This document shows, piece after piece, positions 3,152-36,059 of a DNA stretch of 38,014 nucleotides; position 1 is the stretch's first letter, and every line of letters starts with the position of its first letter. A program made the position numbers and the translations under genes. The notes beneath the pieces were generated by a model. The model ran no database searches. It was given only the letters and a program-made list of their open reading frames with translations, and was not told where the DNA came from. This stretch comes from a virus: UHGV virus genome UHGV-0042156, one strand, 5' to 3'.

Positions 3152-3420
3152 TGGGCGGTTCCTTCGTAACCGATGGCTTCTGCAATTTCAGCAAGTGTCT
3201 CTGCACTTTCACCCACTGGCTCATTCATCCAGTCGAAGGAAACAAGCTTACCGCCTTCGATAACGCCGATGTTGAAATCATCACTACCTTGTGTTTTCAG
3301 ACCATGCTTGATTGCCTTATCGCGCTTATCGAAGTCAACGCCGTCTGTCGTGTATTCAACTCCATGGCCTTTCTCGTTGCACCACCAGTACTGCTGAATA
3401 ACGATGTATGATTTTCTCAT
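3148..3420 (-). CDS. Hypothetical early protein
   Basis: 90-aa ORF in operon context. Confidence 0.65.
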   Translation of the reverse strand: MRKSYIVIQQYWWCNEKGHGVEYTTDGVDFDKRDKAIKHGLKTQGSDDFNIGVIEGGKLVSFDWMNEPVGESAETLAEIAEAIGYEGTAQ

Positions 3421-4082
3421 AGCGCGGATCCTTTGCGAATTTGCTCCCTGAACAAGCGGGCTGAGACGATGATGTCTCTGATGCGTACTGATTTTTCGTC
3501 GAACTGCTCACCACCGTTTTTAATATGCGCATCCAGTTCTGCACTGTGATGCTGGATGAAAGCGTTGAGGCACTGCGCCCGCACTTCAGCCATGAAAGCG
3601 TCGGTGGCTGGGGTTTTGTTATCTGACTCCAGCCACTGGTTGTAGTAATAATCGAACATGCCAGTAGGATAACCACATCCGCTGTGCACGTGGTCTTTCA
3701 TAGCAGAACCACACATACAGTAGTCATTGTCAGTATTACTAATGATGTCGATAAGTTGCTGTGTCCGTTGCTTCAACATCGCATTCTCCGCCGCCAGCGC
3801 CGAAAACTTCTCGTGTGCCAACTTAACAGCTGCATCAGCCTGCTTAATTGACTCAGTCGCTTTCTGGTGGTCTTCGGCCAGCCCTGCTAAATCAGCCTCC
3901 AGTTCGGCTAGGCGTTCATTTAATGCATCTCGTTCATCCAGTAGAGCCAGCACAACCTGAGGTGTTACTTTCATACGAAATGCCAGCAATTTTTGAGGCG
4001 TTGCTACTGTTTCAATTGCTACTGCTGCCTCACGCAGTACCTGATAGTCAATCTTGCTCACTGGTTGCCTCCTTTGCGCCAC
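3417..4082 (-). CDS. Ead/Ea22-like coiled-coil protein
   Basis: 221-aa ORF with long coiled-coil ([20 protein letters not shown]...) and Cys/His cluster; typical of the lambdoid early-left region. Confidence 0.65.
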
Positions 4083-4235: not shown

Positions 4236-4532
4236 TCAGTCATTACTGATAGCGCCATAGCGTGAGCGGTAATTACGCAGGCGCGGGTCGATATATTCAG
4301 GGAAGTGGGTATATGTGGCTTTGCGGAATGGTCGGATTGATGTCTGGTAAATTCGCTCGCGTTCTTCTTTCTCTGCAAGCCATATACAGTGGCGAAATTC
4401 CTTTTCCTCTTTCGTTTCCTGCGGTAGAGACATTATTCGATCGTAGTTTTTCCTGAATTTATCCAGCACCTCCGATACGGAATTGCCGGAACAGCGGCGC
4501 GCGTCATCCGCACCATACAGAGGCACTGGCAT
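4236..4532 (-). CDS. Hypothetical early protein
   Basis: 98-aa ORF. Confidence 0.6.
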
Positions 4533-4555
4533 AATTAAATCCTTATTTTTCTAAA

Positions 4556-4939
4556 TCAGAATGGGATGGAATCGTCGTATACAGGAGTGTTCTGCTGGTT
4601 ACTACTTTGCTGCTGCTGGCTGTTTCCTGAAGTTGCAAATCCAATCTTTGCATTCAGTAATTCAAGAGTGATTGATTGACCATTTTGCCCCTGATAAACA
4701 TCAACCCTGATGTTTTCTCCGGTAATTTCCACAATTCCACCTTCAACAAGAACACTACGGTAGTAATCCGCTTGCGCTCCCGGCTTGGCAAATACAACGG
4801 CGCTGTAGTTTGTCCATTCTTTCTTTTTTGTCTGGCGATCGTAATACTGAACGCCAGCACGGATGTTGAATCCGATATTTTCCCCGGCCTGAAACTCTCT
4901 TGCGGGCTTGTTTAGTCTTACAGTAATCGAATGTGCCAT
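4556..4939 (-). CDS. Single-stranded DNA-binding-like protein
   Basis: 127-aa ORF; Q/S-rich linker (SGNSQQQQSSNQQ) and C-terminal acidic tail ...YDDSIPF resembling the SSB DDDIPF tip; immediately downstream of erf. Confidence 0.7.
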   Translation of the reverse strand: MAHSITVRLNKPAREFQAGENIGFNIRAGVQYYDRQTKKKEWTNYSAVVFAKPGAQADYYRSVLVEGGIVEITGENIRVDVYQGQNGQSITLELLNAKIGFATSGNSQQQQSSNQQNTPVYDDSIPF

Positions 4940-5544
4940 TAAGCAGCCGCTCCTTCTAATTCGTCTCGTCTGATGTTGTAAACGTCCTGCGCTTTGTGCT
5001 GCTCAGGTGTGCCTTCGAGCATCTTCCACGCTTTGGCGAACGCCTGTTTAAGCTCTTCCACGGTGTTTTTCTGCATTGCTGCGTCAGTGAATGCTTTTAG
5101 AACCTGTTCAGGTGTAGGTGATGGTTTTGATTGCTTTGCTGCTGCGTTCTGCTGATGTTTATGCTCGTCTGTATCTGCATCTTTCGCATCATCAATGCCG
5201 AACAAACCATTGAGGCAATACTTGCGCGCATAAGAACTTGTAGCTCCAGTAACTTGTGCAGAATCCATTCCTTTCTTGCTTTCTTCCTCTCGTGCAAGAG
5301 CGGTTGCCGTATGACTGTTTTCGCCATCGGTAATAGTTGCCGTGGCTTTCACGTAATACCGATCACCAATCAACACAACTTCATCGCTGATTGATAAAAA
5401 CAGGCCATTCAGTAACGGCTTAACGCCTTCAAGAATGTCTTCGCAGCTTCTGTATTTATATTTGCCGAATGAGTTGTACTGATTCTTTGGCGCGTTCAGA
5501 TTCTCCTGAATAGCTGCCAGTCTTGCGTAAAATTCTTTGCTCAT
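4939..5544 (-). CDS. erf: Erf single-strand annealing recombinase (P22 Erf-like)
   Basis: Starts MSKEFYARLAAIQENLNAPKNQYNSFGKYKYRSCEDILEGVKPLL, colinear with P22 Erf as recalled; ORF-track start 5574 is an N-terminal extension. Confidence 0.85.
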   Translation of the reverse strand: MSKEFYARLAAIQENLNAPKNQYNSFGKYKYRSCEDILEGVKPLLNGLFLSISDEVVLIGDRYYVKATATITDGENSHTATALAREEESKKGMDSAQVTGATSSYARKYCLNGLFGIDDAKDADTDEHKHQQNAAAKQSKPSPTPEQVLKAFTDAAMQKNTVEELKQAFAKAWKMLEGTPEQHKAQDVYNIRRDELEGAAA

Positions 5545-5633
5545 ATGATTGTTCTCAGAATGGACATGGCCCAAGGAAATAACGCTGATTTAATACTTCA
5601 GTCTTTGCCGCATTCAAAAATACGCGAACACCT

Positions 5634-5804
5634 TCACGATCTCCCTTCTGGCGATACATTAACGCCTGCTGCGTGTACATGCGTCTCTGTAACTTGCTCT
5701 CCTTCACTGTGGTTGCAAGTGACATGAATATCTCCTTCGTTACCGATTAATTCTTTCATCTGACGAATGAATTCTTCGTCTGACCAGTTATCTGTAAAAC
5801 TCAT
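5634..5804 (-). CDS. Small hypothetical protein downstream of kil
   Basis: Start ATG overlaps kil stop (ATGA coupling). Confidence 0.4.
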   Translation of the reverse strand: MSFTDNWSDEEFIRQMKELIGNEGDIHVTCNHSEGEQVTETHVHAAGVNVSPEGRS

Positions 5805-5953
5805 TTCCTGCGATACCACGGAAGGTTGATAGCTGATTTCATCGCTTTATTTGCTTCAAGCCACATTTTGGAATCACCAATAAATCTGGCTATTACTGCT
5901 TTGTTCTGTGCAGCACGAAGCATCTGGTGATTGATGGCTATTTCATTGCGCAT
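5801..5953 (-). CDS. kil: Kil-like host cell-division inhibitor
   Basis: Manual translation MRNEIAINHQMLRAAQNKAVIARFIGDSKMWLEANKAMKSAINLPWYRRK; the IARFIGDSKMW segment resembles lambda Kil (IATFIGDEKMF) as recalled; not in ORF track. Confidence 0.55.
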   Translation of the reverse strand: MRNEIAINHQMLRAAQNKAVIARFIGDSKMWLEANKAMKSAINLPWYRRK

Positions 5954-6072
5954 AACGCCTCCAGTTGTTTCTTTGCTGCTCTGATTAATTGTTTAACTCG
6001 GCGTGATAATTCAGATTCGTGCGGGTAGAAAGCGGACATGACGCCGCTACCCGCGAGCTGAAAGTGCATCAT
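5938..6072 (-). CDS. cIII: cIII-like FtsH inhibitor
   Basis: Manual translation MMHFQLAGSGVMSAFYPHESELSRRVKQLIRAAKKQLEALCAMK; pattern matches lambda CIII (MQYAIAGWPVAGCPSESLLERITRKLR) as recalled; AAGGA 8 nt upstream; overlaps kil start. Confidence 0.5.
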   Translation of the reverse strand: MMHFQLAGSGVMSAFYPHESELSRRVKQLIRAAKKQLEALCAMK

Positions 6073-6145
6073 GGGGAAGTTCCTTAAGTTGAATGTTGTT
6101 GTCATAGCGAAAGAGACTCGAATGAATCTCTGTTGATATGCTGGT

Positions 6146-6170
6146 ATGAAAAAGCCGCACTCAGGCGGCT
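6146..6170 (-). terminator. Rho-independent terminator after orphan gene
   Basis: Minus-strand hairpin AGCCGCCTGAGTGCGGCT followed by TTTTTC; overlaps the stop codon. Confidence 0.6.
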
Positions 6171-7143
6171 ATTTGATGTCTTGCGTGTAGCCTGTACCGC
6201 CACAGCATGAGCATTGCTCTATTGGCGCGTGAATGGTATCCATAAGCGTCGTAAGGAAGTTATCAATCATTTCCTTTAGCTCCCATTCGTTATTGGCTTT
6301 GAACCCTTTAATCGCCGTATAACCTTTGTAATTTTCTTGGTCATGTGTCATTTGGAAAATTTCAATTTCCTTCACCGTGTCAGTCTTAAAGTGCAACTTT
6401 GCTCTTTGCTTCTTGGTTCTGGCAAAAATATCCTGATATGAATATGTGTGAGGCTTAAGGAGCGGTATTATTTTTTTAACGGTAAAGCAAAATGCGTAAT
6501 CACTTGTTATTCTAGCCAGTTTGTTGTCGATGTTATCTTTTACGTGCTGGCGTACAATGTCATACATTTCTTTTGATGAAATTTCACAAGGGCTGTTAGC
6601 CCGCAAAGGCTCAGGAATTATGATGCAGTCAACAAGAGAGTGTTTTACGTTTATGTTTTTTACAACGTACCTCTCCTCCCGGAACTCAACCTGCCTAATT
6701 GCAGAGTAATTAAATTCTGGTGCGTCACGAAAATTTTCAACCTCACATACTAATGTGAATTCAACGTCAACTGGAGAGGTGTAATCAGGTGCAGTATCGT
6801 ATTTGTATTCATAAAGAGAGCCTCTGATATCCTCGTCCACTGCGTCACGCTCATTGTAACTAAGTGTCAAAGGGTATTTTTTACTCTCAAGTTCAGCATC
6901 TTTAAGCTCGTAGCGAACATTAATTCTTTCACCAGAGATAATTCTCTCAACCTTTTCAGGGTAATGTTCAATTTCAAACCAGTTTTTGTGAAAGCTGGCT
7001 TTGGGTTTAACTCCGTCAAATAGGAGATCAGCAATTTTAGATTGATGGTACTGGTAGTGATAACCGTCCTTTGCTGTGCAATCAGTGATAAAACATTTAC
7101 CAGCGTCGGTTTTAATAATGCTTATTTGCAATGCGTTACTCAT
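6169..7143 (-). CDS. AT-rich orphan protein of unknown function (324 aa), candidate accessory/defence gene
   Basis: Long ORF; preferred start MSNALQ at 7143 with GGAGGAG SD (ORF-track start 7239 lacks a usable SD); visibly lower GC than flanks; C-terminal CSCCGGTGY; no motif I recognise. Confidence 0.75.
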   Translation of the reverse strand: MSNALQISIIKTDAGKCFITDCTAKDGYHYQYHQSKIADLLFDGVKPKASFHKNWFEIEHYPEKVERIISGERINVRYELKDAELESKKYPLTLSYNERDAVDEDIRGSLYEYKYDTAPDYTSPVDVEFTLVCEVENFRDAPEFNYSAIRQVEFREERYVVKNINVKHSLVDCIIIPEPLRANSPCEISSKEMYDIVRQHVKDNIDNKLARITSDYAFCFTVKKIIPLLKPHTYSYQDIFARTKKQRAKLHFKTDTVKEIEIFQMTHDQENYKGYTAIKGFKANNEWELKEMIDNFLTTLMDTIHAPIEQCSCCGGTGYTQDIK

Positions 7144-8341: not shown

Positions 8342-8352
8342 TTACCTCGCTG

Positions 8353-8613
8353 TCAGTTGTTTTGATTTCCGGAGCCTGCCGCGTAAATGGCTACGTTTGG
8401 CAGGCAAATACTTCCACTGCATTCTTCTTCCTTCTTGCAGCGAAGGCTTCCGAGTGATGCTGCTTTGTCTGCTCTGACGCAACCAGAGAGCTTTAGCGCA
8501 ATTTTTCGCGCCAGTCGCTGTTCTTGCATTGCCTGCTCACGTTGAGCCTGTCTGCGTGCTCTGCGGCGATTTCTGGCGTTATCGTCAGCCAGATATGTAA
8601 TGACTACTGTCAT
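8353..8613 (-). CDS. N: N-type transcription antiterminator (P22 gp24-like)
   Basis: 86-aa ORF with N-terminal arginine-rich motif (NARNRRRARRQAQRE); MTVVITY start and LPNVAIYAAG resemble P22 gp24; first gene downstream of nutL. Confidence 0.7.
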   Translation of the reverse strand: MTVVITYLADDNARNRRRARRQAQREQAMQEQRLARKIALKLSGCVRADKAASLGSLRCKKEEECSGSICLPNVAIYAAGSGNQNN

Positions 8614-8762: not shown

Positions 8763-8810
8763 TGCCAATCTGTTCCGTTTGGCTACCAGCTTCCTGCTGA
8801 TGGCTTAAAG

Positions 8811-8893
8811 ATAACTTAGGTTATAGGTGTGGTCAATAACCTAATTTATATTTTGTGGTAAATAAGTTATAAGTGATGGATAACAAAGGTATT
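8811..8893. promoter_or_regulatory. OL operator cluster / pL region
   Basis: Three 14-bp sites ATAAC-N4-GTTAT: ATAACTTAGGTTAT (8811), ATAACCTAATTTAT (8836), ATAACAAAGGTATT (8880); same consensus as OR. Confidence 0.5.
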
Positions 8894-9027
8894 TTATTTT
8901 TGTAAATGTTGCTGATTGATTGGTGTTTGAGGGCTTGCGTGCGGGGTGAAGGTGTTACCTTTGGCTTGATGCTTGTCTATGATGAGGATGGTTGATTGGG
9001 TGGTGAACGGCAGGGAAAGAAAAACCC

Positions 9028-9117
9028 NNNNNNNNNNNNNNNNNNNNNNNNNNNNNNNNNNNNNNNNNNNNNNNNNNNNNNNNNNNNNNNNNNNNNNNNN
9101 NNNNNNNNNNNNNNNNN
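9028..9117. other. Run of 90 N (assembly gap or masked sequence)
   Basis: Literal n characters; flanked on both sides by ccc. Confidence 1.
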
Positions 9118-9142
9118 CCCGGCGCTGAGGCCGGGTGTTTTT
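9118..9142. terminator. Terminator hairpin (lambda tImm-like) abutting the N-run
   Basis: CCCGGC-GCTGAG-GCCGGG then TGTTTTT on plus strand; on minus strand the same hairpin follows the stop of the 9141..9437 gene, with its T-tract (aaagaaaaa at 9017..9025) on the other side of the gap. Confidence 0.5.
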
Positions 9143-9437
9143 AGTCCTTTCTATTGCTTAGCATTTCGTCGATTTCTAAGTCAATACGATATTGATCTAT
9201 TGCTTTTCTCTCGTTTGGGGTTGGTATTTTATACTGTTCAATTAGATCTGTTGTGTATTTTATTTCATCTAATGTGATTTTTATATCAGAGAGAATCTCT
9301 TTTATATCAATTAGATGCTCTTCTTCTTTTGCGCGATTAGAGCTATGTTCAATCATTTGAGATAGCTTTTTGCTAATGCTTAGCAAAACAAAAAGAATGA
9401 TGACCAAAACAACAACAAAAACTATCAGAAATTCCAT
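9141..9437 (-). CDS. Small single-pass membrane protein co-transcribed with cI (candidate exclusion/abortive-infection protein)
   Basis: 98-aa ORF, N-terminal hydrophobic helix (EFLIVFVVVLVIILFVLLSI) then charged coiled-coil; GGAGGG SD 3 nt before ATG; very AT-rich; occupies the rexAB slot. Confidence 0.7.
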   Translation of the reverse strand: MEFLIVFVVVLVIILFVLLSISKKLSQMIEHSSNRAKEEEHLIDIKEILSDIKITLDEIKYTTDLIEQYKIPTPNERKAIDQYRIDLEIDEMLSNRKD

Positions 9438-9477: not shown

Positions 9478-10185
9478 TTACCAACTATGAGACGACCAGA
9501 ATACTCTGCCAATAATCCTTACGGTTTCATGAAATTCATCTCTATCCATTACTTCATCCGGGTACTCTTCGCGATTTATTGATCTGATTATCACCGATGT
9601 AGGGGTGGCGATTAATGTTTTTACTCGTAACAAATCAGACTGGCAAATAGCGTAGGTTTTACCATCTCTGATTGTGGTATCTTGCGTGTTAACACCAACA
9701 ACATCGCCATCGTGAAGCGTTGGTTCCATGCTTTGCCCTACAACCCTAACTAGCTTGGCTGATCTTTCAGATACTCCCATCTTTTTCAGATAGTGCTTTC
9801 TGAAAACCAAAGAGAACTCCGATGATTCCTCTAGCTCGCAGCTACCGCTTCCAGCTGAAAGCGAAACGTTAAGAAGAGGCAACGCAACAAACTCGTCATC
9901 GTTTCTTTTAATGTCTTCCCATACCACAGCTTTTAAAGATGACTCACGGACATTGGATGGTTCTTCATGTGCACCATCCCTCATTTCACCAATACCAGAA
10001 CTAAGCCATTCAGGGCGCACTTTTAAAGCATTGGCTAATTCAACCATCTTGCGAGATCCGTTTGTTTTACCGGACGACATCTTCTGTATGGCTGGCTGAG
10101 ATATTCCAACCATGTCAGCAAGCTGTGATTGTGATACCCCAGCTGAGCTCATGGCTGCATTTAGTCTTTCTGCGAATGTTTTCAT
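9478..10185 (-). CDS. cI: CI-type repressor (HTH plus S24 LexA-like autopeptidase domain)
   Basis: 235-aa ORF; N-terminal HTH (SQSQLADMVGISQPAIQKM); C-terminal Ser/Lys dyad context (VGQSMEPTL ... RVK); divergent from cro across an operator region. Confidence 0.9.
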   Translation of the reverse strand: MKTFAERLNAAMSSAGVSQSQLADMVGISQPAIQKMSSGKTNGSRKMVELANALKVRPEWLSSGIGEMRDGAHEEPSNVRESSLKAVVWEDIKRNDDEFVALPLLNVSLSAGSGSCELEESSEFSLVFRKHYLKKMGVSERSAKLVRVVGQSMEPTLHDGDVVGVNTQDTTIRDGKTYAICQSDLLRVKTLIATPTSVIIRSINREEYPDEVMDRDEFHETVRIIGRVFWSSHSW

Positions 10186-10196
10186 ACCACAAATCT

Positions 10197-10272
10197 ATAA
10201 CTACGGTTATCCAAAGTAAAATAACAAAGGTTATTGCTATTTTTTATAACTTGAGTTATCTTTGGTTATAAT
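10197..10272. promoter_or_regulatory. OR operator cluster with pR -10
   Basis: Three ATAAC-N4-GTTAT sites at 10197, 10221, 10246 (24-25 bp spacing); TATAAT at 10267..10272 upstream of cro. Confidence 0.55.
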
Positions 10273-28436: not shown

Positions 28437-28541
28437 ATGCCGATTCAGCAACTTCCGCTTATGAAAGGTGTCGGCAAAGACTTTCGAAACGCCGACTATA
28501 TCGACTATCTGCCAGTGAATATGTTGGCAATTTTGATATAA
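28437..28541 (+). pseudogene. Truncated original 5' end of gene 10 (31 native codons, then stop)
   Basis: [31 protein letters not shown] matches P22 gp10 N-terminus, then runs into ILI-stop at the insertion point. Confidence 0.65.
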
Positions 28542-29202
28542 TAAGTACATGAAAAATCGAAACTTTAAGGAGTAGATATGCTTTCTGAGAATGCTAAAGA
28601 TATACCTGGATTTGAAGGTGTTTATGCCGTAACAGAAGATGGCAGGGTGCATTCTCACTCACGTGTTGTTAAGGCTGCGCATGGCAGCACGCAACTCAGA
28701 AAGGGGCGCTGGTTAAAGCCTAAAATAAATCAGGGAAGGGTGCTTTATAATATCGGAGCAAAATGGACTTTTGCCCATCGAATCGTTGCAATGACATTCC
28801 TGCCAAATCCTGAAAACAAGCCTCAGGTAAATCATATTGATGGCAATCCACTCAATAATAACGTCAATAATCTTGAGTGGTGCACTCAAAGCGAAAACAT
28901 CAAACATGCATACGCCACAGGATTAAAGAAACCAATCAAGTTTTTCGGAACCAAGCACCCAAAACACAAGTTGAGTGATGACGATGTTCTTGCAATCAAG
29001 TCATCAAAAGAAAGCTTGTCAGTAATTGCGGCTAAGTACGGGATATCTAAGACCTGGGCAAGTAGGCTAAAGCGTGATGCTAACTGGGTTCATATAAAGG
29101 TTGATTCCAATGGCAATACAACAACTACCACTAATGAAGGGATTAGGGAAAAGTGCGGTTAATGCTGATTATATAGACCAACTTCCAGTCAATCTTTTAG
29201 CT
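28530..29202 (+). mobile_element. HNH endonuclease cassette inserted in gene 10, carrying a divergent copy of gene-10 codons 1-31
   Basis: 93-bp segment 29110..29202 encodes the same 31 residues as 28437..28529 with different, AT-rich codons; HNH gene lies between the two copies. Confidence 0.55.
28578..29162 (+). CDS. HNH endonuclease (NUMOD4 plus HNH plus C-terminal HTH)
   Basis: IPGFEGVYAVTEDGRVHS, VNHIDGNPLNNNVNNLEWCTQSEN, VIAAKYGISKTWASRLKR; 3' end overlaps restored gene-10 start. Confidence 0.8.
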   Translation: MLSENAKDIPGFEGVYAVTEDGRVHSHSRVVKAAHGSTQLRKGRWLKPKINQGRVLYNIGAKWTFAHRIVAMTFLPNPENKPQVNHIDGNPLNNNVNNLEWCTQSENIKHAYATGLKKPIKFFGTKHPKHKLSDDDVLAIKSSKESLSVIAAKYGISKTWASRLKRDANWVHIKVDSNGNTTTTTNEGIREKCG

Positions 29203-30528
29203 ACGCCCAAGGAGGTGTTGAATTCATCGGGATATCTTCGCTCATTTCCGGGCATTGCCAAACGCTCTGATGTGAACGGCGTATCTCGCGGAGTCGAGTA
29301 CAACATGGCGCAGAATGCTGTTTATCGCGTGTGTGGTGGCAAACTGTACAAAGGAGAAAGTGAAGTCGGTGACGTCGCCGGAAGTGGTCGCGTATCAATG
29401 GCGCATGGTCGGACATCTCAGGCTGTAGGCGTTAATGGTCAACTGGTCGAGTATCGCTATGATGGCACGGTTAAAACCGTCTCAAACTGGCCTACAGACA
29501 GCGGATTCACGCAGTATGAGTTAGGTTCGGTTCGTGACATTACTCGCTTACGTGGGCGTTATGCGTGGTCAAAAGACGGTACTGATTCATGGTTCATCAC
29601 TGACCCTGAAGACGAATCGCATCCTGACCGCTACAGTGCACAATATCGTGCAGAATCGCAGCCGGACGGCATCATCGGCATCGGAACATGGCGAGACTTC
29701 ATCGTCTGCTTTGGTTCATCGACGATTGAATATTTCTCCCTGACTGGTGCAACCACCGTTGGTGCTGCTTTGTATGTCGCACAGCCATCGTTGATGGTGC
29801 AGAAAGGCATTGCAGGAACCTACTGCAAAACGCAGTTTTCTGATTCGTATGCGTTCATCAGCAATCCGGCAACAGGTGCGCCGTCTGTTTACATCATCGG
29901 ATCCGGTCAGGTGTCACCAATCGCCAGCGCGAGCATTGAGAAAATCCTCCGCTCCTACACCGCGGATGAACTGGCTGATGGCGTGATGGAGTCTCTGCGA
30001 TTTGATGCGCATGAACTGCTGATTATCCATCTTCCGCGCCATGTCCTCGTGTACGACGCATCTTCAAGCGCCAATGGTCCGCAATGGTGCGTACTGAAAA
30101 CAGGACTGTATGACGATGTGTACCGCGCTATCGACTTCATTTACGAAGGCAATCAGATAACGTGCGGCGATAAGCTGGAATCCGTGACCGGGAAATTGCA
30201 GTTCGATATCAGCAGCCAGTACGACAAGCAGCAGGAACACCTGCTGTTTACTCCGTTGTTCAAAGCGGATAACGCCAGAGTGTTCGACCTTGAGGTTGAG
30301 TCGTCAACTGGCGTTGCGCAGTATGCTGACCGCCTGTTCCTCTCTGCAACCACTGACGGCATCAATTACGGACGTGAGCAGATGATTGAGCAGAATGAAC
30401 CGTTCGTTTACGACAAACGCGTTTTGTGGAAGCGAGTCGGGCGCATCAGGAAAAATGTCGGCTTCAAATTGCGCGTTATCACGAAGTCACCTGTCACTCT
30501 TTCTGGCTGCCAGATAAGGATTGAGTAA
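29110..30528 (+). CDS. Tail hub protein (P22 gp10-like), restored full-length copy
   Basis: [49 protein letters not shown]... colinear with P22 gp10 (ORF-track start 29101). Confidence 0.85.
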
Positions 30529-35774: not shown

Positions 35775-36059
35775 AAGCTTTCCTACAACAAGTCCGAACA
35801 TTAAGAACGCAAAGTTCAATAAATCTCTGTCCATAAATCCTCCTGTTTACCAAAACTATATCAAACTTTAACGCAATGCTGCGCAACTTAAGTGACTTTC
35901 AGGTTGATAACAGACACTCTTTTTTGCATGATTCCTTTAGACCATCACAATTGATGAAGAATCATGAAAAGAAGAACTCTTCTAAAGTCTTTGCTCGGCC
36001 TGACGTCACTCTTACCAGTTAAGTTTGCAGCATCTCAAAACCTGCAAGGTAAAAGTATA

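Follow-up and report, generated by a model that had tools for sequence, protein, structure and literature searches.

A 90-N run in the immunity region of an Escherichia coli P22-like prophage is very probably an empty scaffold gap within a predicted tImm-type terminator

Genes and features of the immunity region

The DNA analysed here, referred to as the window, is a stretch of 38,014 bases (UHGV virus genome UHGV-0042156) which carries a prophage of P22-like/lambdoid character, possessing a tailspike, gp10, gp4, a P22-type capsid, Erf, Kil, cI/cro/cII and Q. Across its immunity region, the features follow one another in the order N-like gene, oL/pL, putative terminator, orf98, cI, oR, cro and cII.

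The leftward pL operon opens with the N-like gene. It is located on the minus strand (8353-8613) and its predicted product is an antiterminator with an arginine-rich motif, showing a match to Pfam N_peptide (42.5 bits, with a cut-off of 27.9) and to phrog_271. When compared to homologs of 90 amino acids, the gene (8342-8613, minus strand) has a 1-bp deletion after codon 80, as a result of which the last 10 residues (YRKSKQLTAR) are exchanged for SGNQNN. This deletion is common to the draft and to the closed genome described below, and is flagged as a frameshift by PGAP. It is worth mentioning that in a related prophage of E. coli 19AR0253 the region of the N-like gene, to the left of the terminator, is replaced by an IS21-family element (IstB and rve transposase; locus positions 4432-6297).

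The oL/pL region (8807-8892, minus strand) has operator-like palindromes of the form ATAAC-N-GTTAT, which are also found in the intergenic region between cI and cro. A promoter scan predicted a leftward sigma-70-like promoter (TTGACC-17-TATCTT) on the minus strand at 8836-8808, overlapping these palindromes. The cI-cro interval has oR-like operators (10196-10270), which share a repeat family with those at oL; the repeat families D1-D3, I1-I3, and I6 link positions 3408-3493 of the closed-genome locus with positions 4698-4778 (for the oR-like operators, addition of 5492 converts locus coordinates to those of the window).

The cI-like repressor (9478-10185, minus strand) possesses HTH_3 and Peptidase_S24 domains and is annotated as an XRE family regulator. 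It is followed by the last gene of the immunity operon, orf98 (9141-9437, minus strand), an ORF coding for a protein of 98 amino acids with a hydrophobic stretch at its N-terminus, which was assigned to phrog_18389 (unknown function). This gene occupies the slot which is held by rexA-rexB in phage lambda, between cI and tImm. A PADLOC search gave no hit for orf98, and in Pfam there was just a sub-threshold match to DUF5385. An identical orf98 protein is present in 572 blocks of the contig collection.

The prophage and its strain of origin

In the closed chromosome of E. coli MS 115-1 (NZ_CP146665.1), the stretch on the reverse strand from 3,256,103 to 3,218,183 is colinear with the window. A base-by-base comparison, for which 39.3 kb of NZ_CP146665.1 was used, gave 2 mismatches in the 37,924 non-N bases of the window. 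A search of 5,426 complete E. coli genomes found at least 80% of the window from 9118 to 34000 (24.9 kb) in MS 115-1 alone, while the second-best genome covers 74% of it with 95% identity. This near-identity, together with the sole coverage of at least 80%, indicates that the window is the MS 115-1 prophage, taken from a gapped assembly.

The two mismatches between the draft and the closed genome lie at window positions 1758 (G vs. T) and 22096 (G vs. A) and there are no others. Both extend a G run in the draft, which suggests that bases were miscalled in one assembly or the other.

In MS 115-1 the prophage sits between ybhC and ybhB, in what we take to be the lambda attB neighborhood, even though it has P22-like virion genes. 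The window has been trimmed so that about 50 bp remain outside the integrase gene on one side and outside the tailspike gene on the opposite side. Within the early left operon there is a gene for a protein of 324 amino acids (6169-7143, minus strand) matching Pfam PF25705, Gad1 (Gabija anti-defence 1), with an E-value of 6.5e-68 and 229.9 bits (cut-off 27). Its annotation in the closed genome is that of a hypothetical protein, and PADLOC gave no hit for it. An HNH endonuclease gene was also identified (closed genome 3227035-3227760, at about 28526-29251 in the window). This adjoins a partial pseudogene for a packaged DNA stabilization protein and overlaps the start of gp10, suggesting a homing-endonuclease insertion in the head-completion module.

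The N run and its flanks

Positions 9028-9117 of the window consist of 90 N, the sole N run that it contains. To the left the sequence reads ...ggcagggaaagaaaaaccc (9010-9027) and to the right cccggcgctgaggccgggtgttttt (9118-9142), so that the two contigs end with ...AAAAACCC and begin with CCCGGCGC..., respectively. The run is bordered on each side by ccc, the left contig ending with these bases at 9025-9027 and the right contig starting with the same three at 9118-9120, with the result that they occur twice in the scaffold. These letters and coordinates are exactly those given in the initial annotation, which had read the repeated ccc as a sign of two overlapping contig ends, with perhaps little or no sequence missing between them. 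The chance of finding identical ccc on both sides of an N run is 1 in 64, and taken alone this is weak evidence.

The closed genome of the same strain serves here as a spanning read, although as a separate and later assembly NZ_CP146665.1 is not strict proof of the DNA content of the culture from which the draft was made. Both flanks of the N run match it at 100%, the left flank stopping at 3,247,077 and the right flank beginning at 3,247,079. When 3,000 exact bases from each side were placed, they were found to overlap by 3 bp, these being the ccc shared by both flanks; in coordinates of the closed-genome locus the left flank covers 3429-3628 and the right flank 3626-3825. The closed sequence across the join reads ...GGGAAAGAAAAACCCGGCGCTGAGGCCGGGTGTTTTTAG..., in which ccc occurs once. 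With the flanks overlapping by 3 bp, it follows that ccc has been doubled in the scaffold and that the true size of the gap is -3 bp, bearing out both earlier claims.

This arrangement extends beyond the one strain. The joined junction (397 bp) is present in one piece, without interruption, in 99 complete E. coli genomes. In addition, the hairpin described below runs directly into TTTT(T)CTTT in the closed genome and in all 10 of the further assemblies inspected, these being contigs which encode an identical orf98; the spacing from the orf98 stop codon to the hairpin is likewise the same in these 10.

The N run is almost certainly an empty scaffold gap in the draft of MS 115-1 or of a near-identical strain. 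A scaffolder would have placed the 90 N as a placeholder between two contigs sharing three end bases (ccc).

The terminator rebuilt by the join

The joined sequence has a terminator-like site on both strands, with a stem of 7 pairs (6 of these being G-C), a loop of 6 nt and a T-rich tail. Fold and alignment place the tImm-type hairpin at 9118-9136 on the minus strand, with the stem (A)CCCGGC / GCCGGG(T) and the loop GCTGAG; with the gap removed, A9024 forms a pair with T9136. This hairpin is the centroid fold of the joined sequence, and the fold z-score for the minus-strand 56-mer is a modest -1.81. On the minus strand the tail of the joined sequence is TTTTCTTTCC. Its T-tract (TTTTTCTTT on the minus strand) lies at 9016-9024 and in the draft it is split from the hairpin by the gap. 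A second tail, TGTTTTT (9136-9142), belongs to the terminator-like site of the plus strand. No Rfam family reached the gathering score in a scan of either the window or the closed region.

A scan of the window as deposited, without joining, detects the plus-strand terminator only, whereas the scan of the joined sequence detects both; the minus-strand site is missed in the window because the N run separates its hairpin from its T-tract. The description of the N run as splitting an intrinsic terminator thus applies to the minus strand, where the hairpin is indeed cut from the T-tract.

The minus strand can be considered as the relevant one from the gene order, with cI and orf98 encoded on it and oL/pL and the N-like gene lying beyond. 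The hairpin is situated 5 nt beyond the orf98 stop codon and approximately 190 bp from oL/pL. No gene was evident on the plus strand upstream of the TGTTTTT tail. The terminator looks to be bidirectional in the MS 115-1 prophage, judging from the sites predicted on both strands.

The length of the T-tract varies, with T5 or T4 found among prophages which are otherwise near-identical, while T4 is found in lambda.

Comparison with tImm of lambda and its relatives

T_IMM is the intrinsic terminator of the lambda immunity region and is located immediately 3' of rexB (bioRxiv 10.1101/2021.04.19.439022). In the lambda genome, the sequence AAAGAAAACCCGGCGCTGAGGCCGGG is contiguous at 35799-35824 and abuts the rexB stop codon; the initial annotation had given this string as the uninterrupted tImm, and the string is present in lambda exactly as given.

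A core of 23 nt, AAAACCCGGCGCTGAGGCCGGGT, was examined in an alignment of seven lambdoid phages/prophages, consisting of the window, lambda, SfI, HK542, H-19B, HK225, and Stx1a_10051. The core is invariant in lambda, SfI, HK542, H-19B, and Stx1a_10051, while in HK225 two loop bases differ and nothing else. To the right of the core, the cargo downstream of cI diverges immediately in the alignment. The record of HK542 has an annotation at this site, reading 'Timm; similar to putative transcriptional terminator of transcripts initiated at pRM, pRE, and pLit in lambda phage'.

The element of the window resembles lambda tImm, the intrinsic terminator for transcripts from pRM, pRE and pLit, in a number of respects. 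The hairpin CCCGGC-GCTGAG-GCCGGG is identical, with the T-run on the minus strand, and it has the same orientation relative to cI. In both cases it follows directly on the stop codon with which the cI operon ends, at 130-190 bp from oL/pL. The gene order of lambda, namely N, nutL, pL/oL, tImm, (rexB rexA), cI, oR, and cro, is also matched by the window. There are differences, however. The T-tract is T4CT3 in lambda and T5CT3 in the window (A4 vs. A5), and the upstream gene is rexB in lambda but the 98-amino-acid ORF in the window. In addition, the stop codon abuts the stem in lambda while it is 5 nt away in the window, and the plus-strand sequence after the hairpin is TTATTCTTG in lambda instead of TGTTTTT.

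The Timm elements of HK542 (EF120458) and HK244 (EF120457) share with that of the window their core sequence and their position, each being a conserved stretch that borders on variable cargo of the immunity region. They differ in the genes found between cI and the terminator and in immunity specificity.

The lambda-identical core, the 'Timm' annotation of HK542 and the same position in the immunity region support the identification of the joined element as a lambda tImm-type intrinsic terminator of a lambdoid (P22-like) prophage, as had been proposed for it at the outset. Such a terminator is not new; it has already been described, and roughly one hundred complete E. coli genomes carry it without change.

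Origin of the gap

The gap resembles other draft scaffold gaps with overlapping contig ends in that the N run is of a non-standard length, the sequence on both sides is unique, and the overlap is shorter than an assembler needs for merging. It differs from them in that the break lies at the foot of a GC-rich hairpin between A5 and T5 runs.

The break had initially been attributed, as probable, to a repeat boundary shared with another prophage. On this reading a flank or the terminator itself would also occur in another prophage of the same genome, and the assembler would have been unable to resolve it. Many lambdoid phages share the short and conserved tImm core, and in other E. coli genomes the 65-bp junction region does occur in 2 to 5 copies (for example, five in Z1323CEC0006 and three in strain 2313), both of which speak for such a boundary. 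In the closed genome of MS 115-1, however, there is one place each for the left flank (628 bp) and the right flank (633 bp), and one place for the 397-bp junction (megablast, E<=10). The same was found for the 65-bp junction with a search (blastn word 11, E<=10) estimated to catch exact repeats of about 20 bp or more. Both contig ends are therefore unique right up to their overlap, and with no second copy of the junction in MS 115-1 the attribution fails for this strain, leaving a repeat boundary as a very unlikely cause.

Illumina sequencing is reported to make sequence-specific errors that are triggered by inverted repeats and by GGC motifs (PMC3141275). Our guess is that the break came from a local loss of usable reads at the stable GC hairpin, with its GGC motifs and A5/T5 flanks. 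The left contig stops 3 bases into the stem, a position which is poorly predicted by Illumina errors triggered by the hairpin or GGC. A collision of inverted-repeat k-mers in a de Bruijn graph was also considered and rejected by reasoning only, as the arms of 7 bp are too short for the usual k.

A different account of the same flanks is that the culture behind the draft carried an insertion, for instance a multi-copy insertion sequence with a 3-bp CCC target duplication; the assembler would have collapsed this insertion, and the stock used for the closed genome would lack it. Members of the IS3 family in E. coli duplicate 3 bp of their target, and identical 3-bp repeats on both sides without foreign bases would fit a target-site duplication; no foreign bases were found at the contig ends in the window. 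Were this account true, a mobile element would lie between the hairpin and the U-tract and would uncouple termination of the immunity operon. No base stands between the repeats in the closed genome, in the 99 complete genomes or in the 10 further assemblies, however, and 90 N is a poor indication of an element of more than 1 kb. An insertion polymorphism at this exact base is also far less likely a priori than a draft contig break of the usual kind, and we consider an insertion to be highly improbable. Some of the sequence collections used are described as having N-masked stretches, but a deliberate database or pipeline mask over 90 real bases would be expected to replace them one for one, whereas the 3-bp overlap of the flanks in the closed genome leaves no 90 bases to hide, and the 34-mer of the left flank is absent, by exact match, from the viral and genome contig collections, which reduces the likelihood of a mask to a negligible one.

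Implications for the immunity operon

With the N run read as an empty scaffold gap, the gap can be closed by removing 93 characters, namely the 90 N together with one copy of ccc. There is no hidden gene to seek in the N run, an artefact of the usual kind which falls on a known element.

From its homology to lambda tImm and its anatomy, we infer that the element terminates transcription in the MS 115-1 prophage. On the minus strand, a GC-rich hairpin of 6-7 bp followed by UUUUUCUUU would end the immunity transcript of cI and orf98, with termination predicted at 5 nt past the orf98 stop codon, ahead of oL/pL. Joining the two contigs would thus restore to the prophage a known terminator, one which annotation tools miss in the draft on the strand that is biologically relevant.
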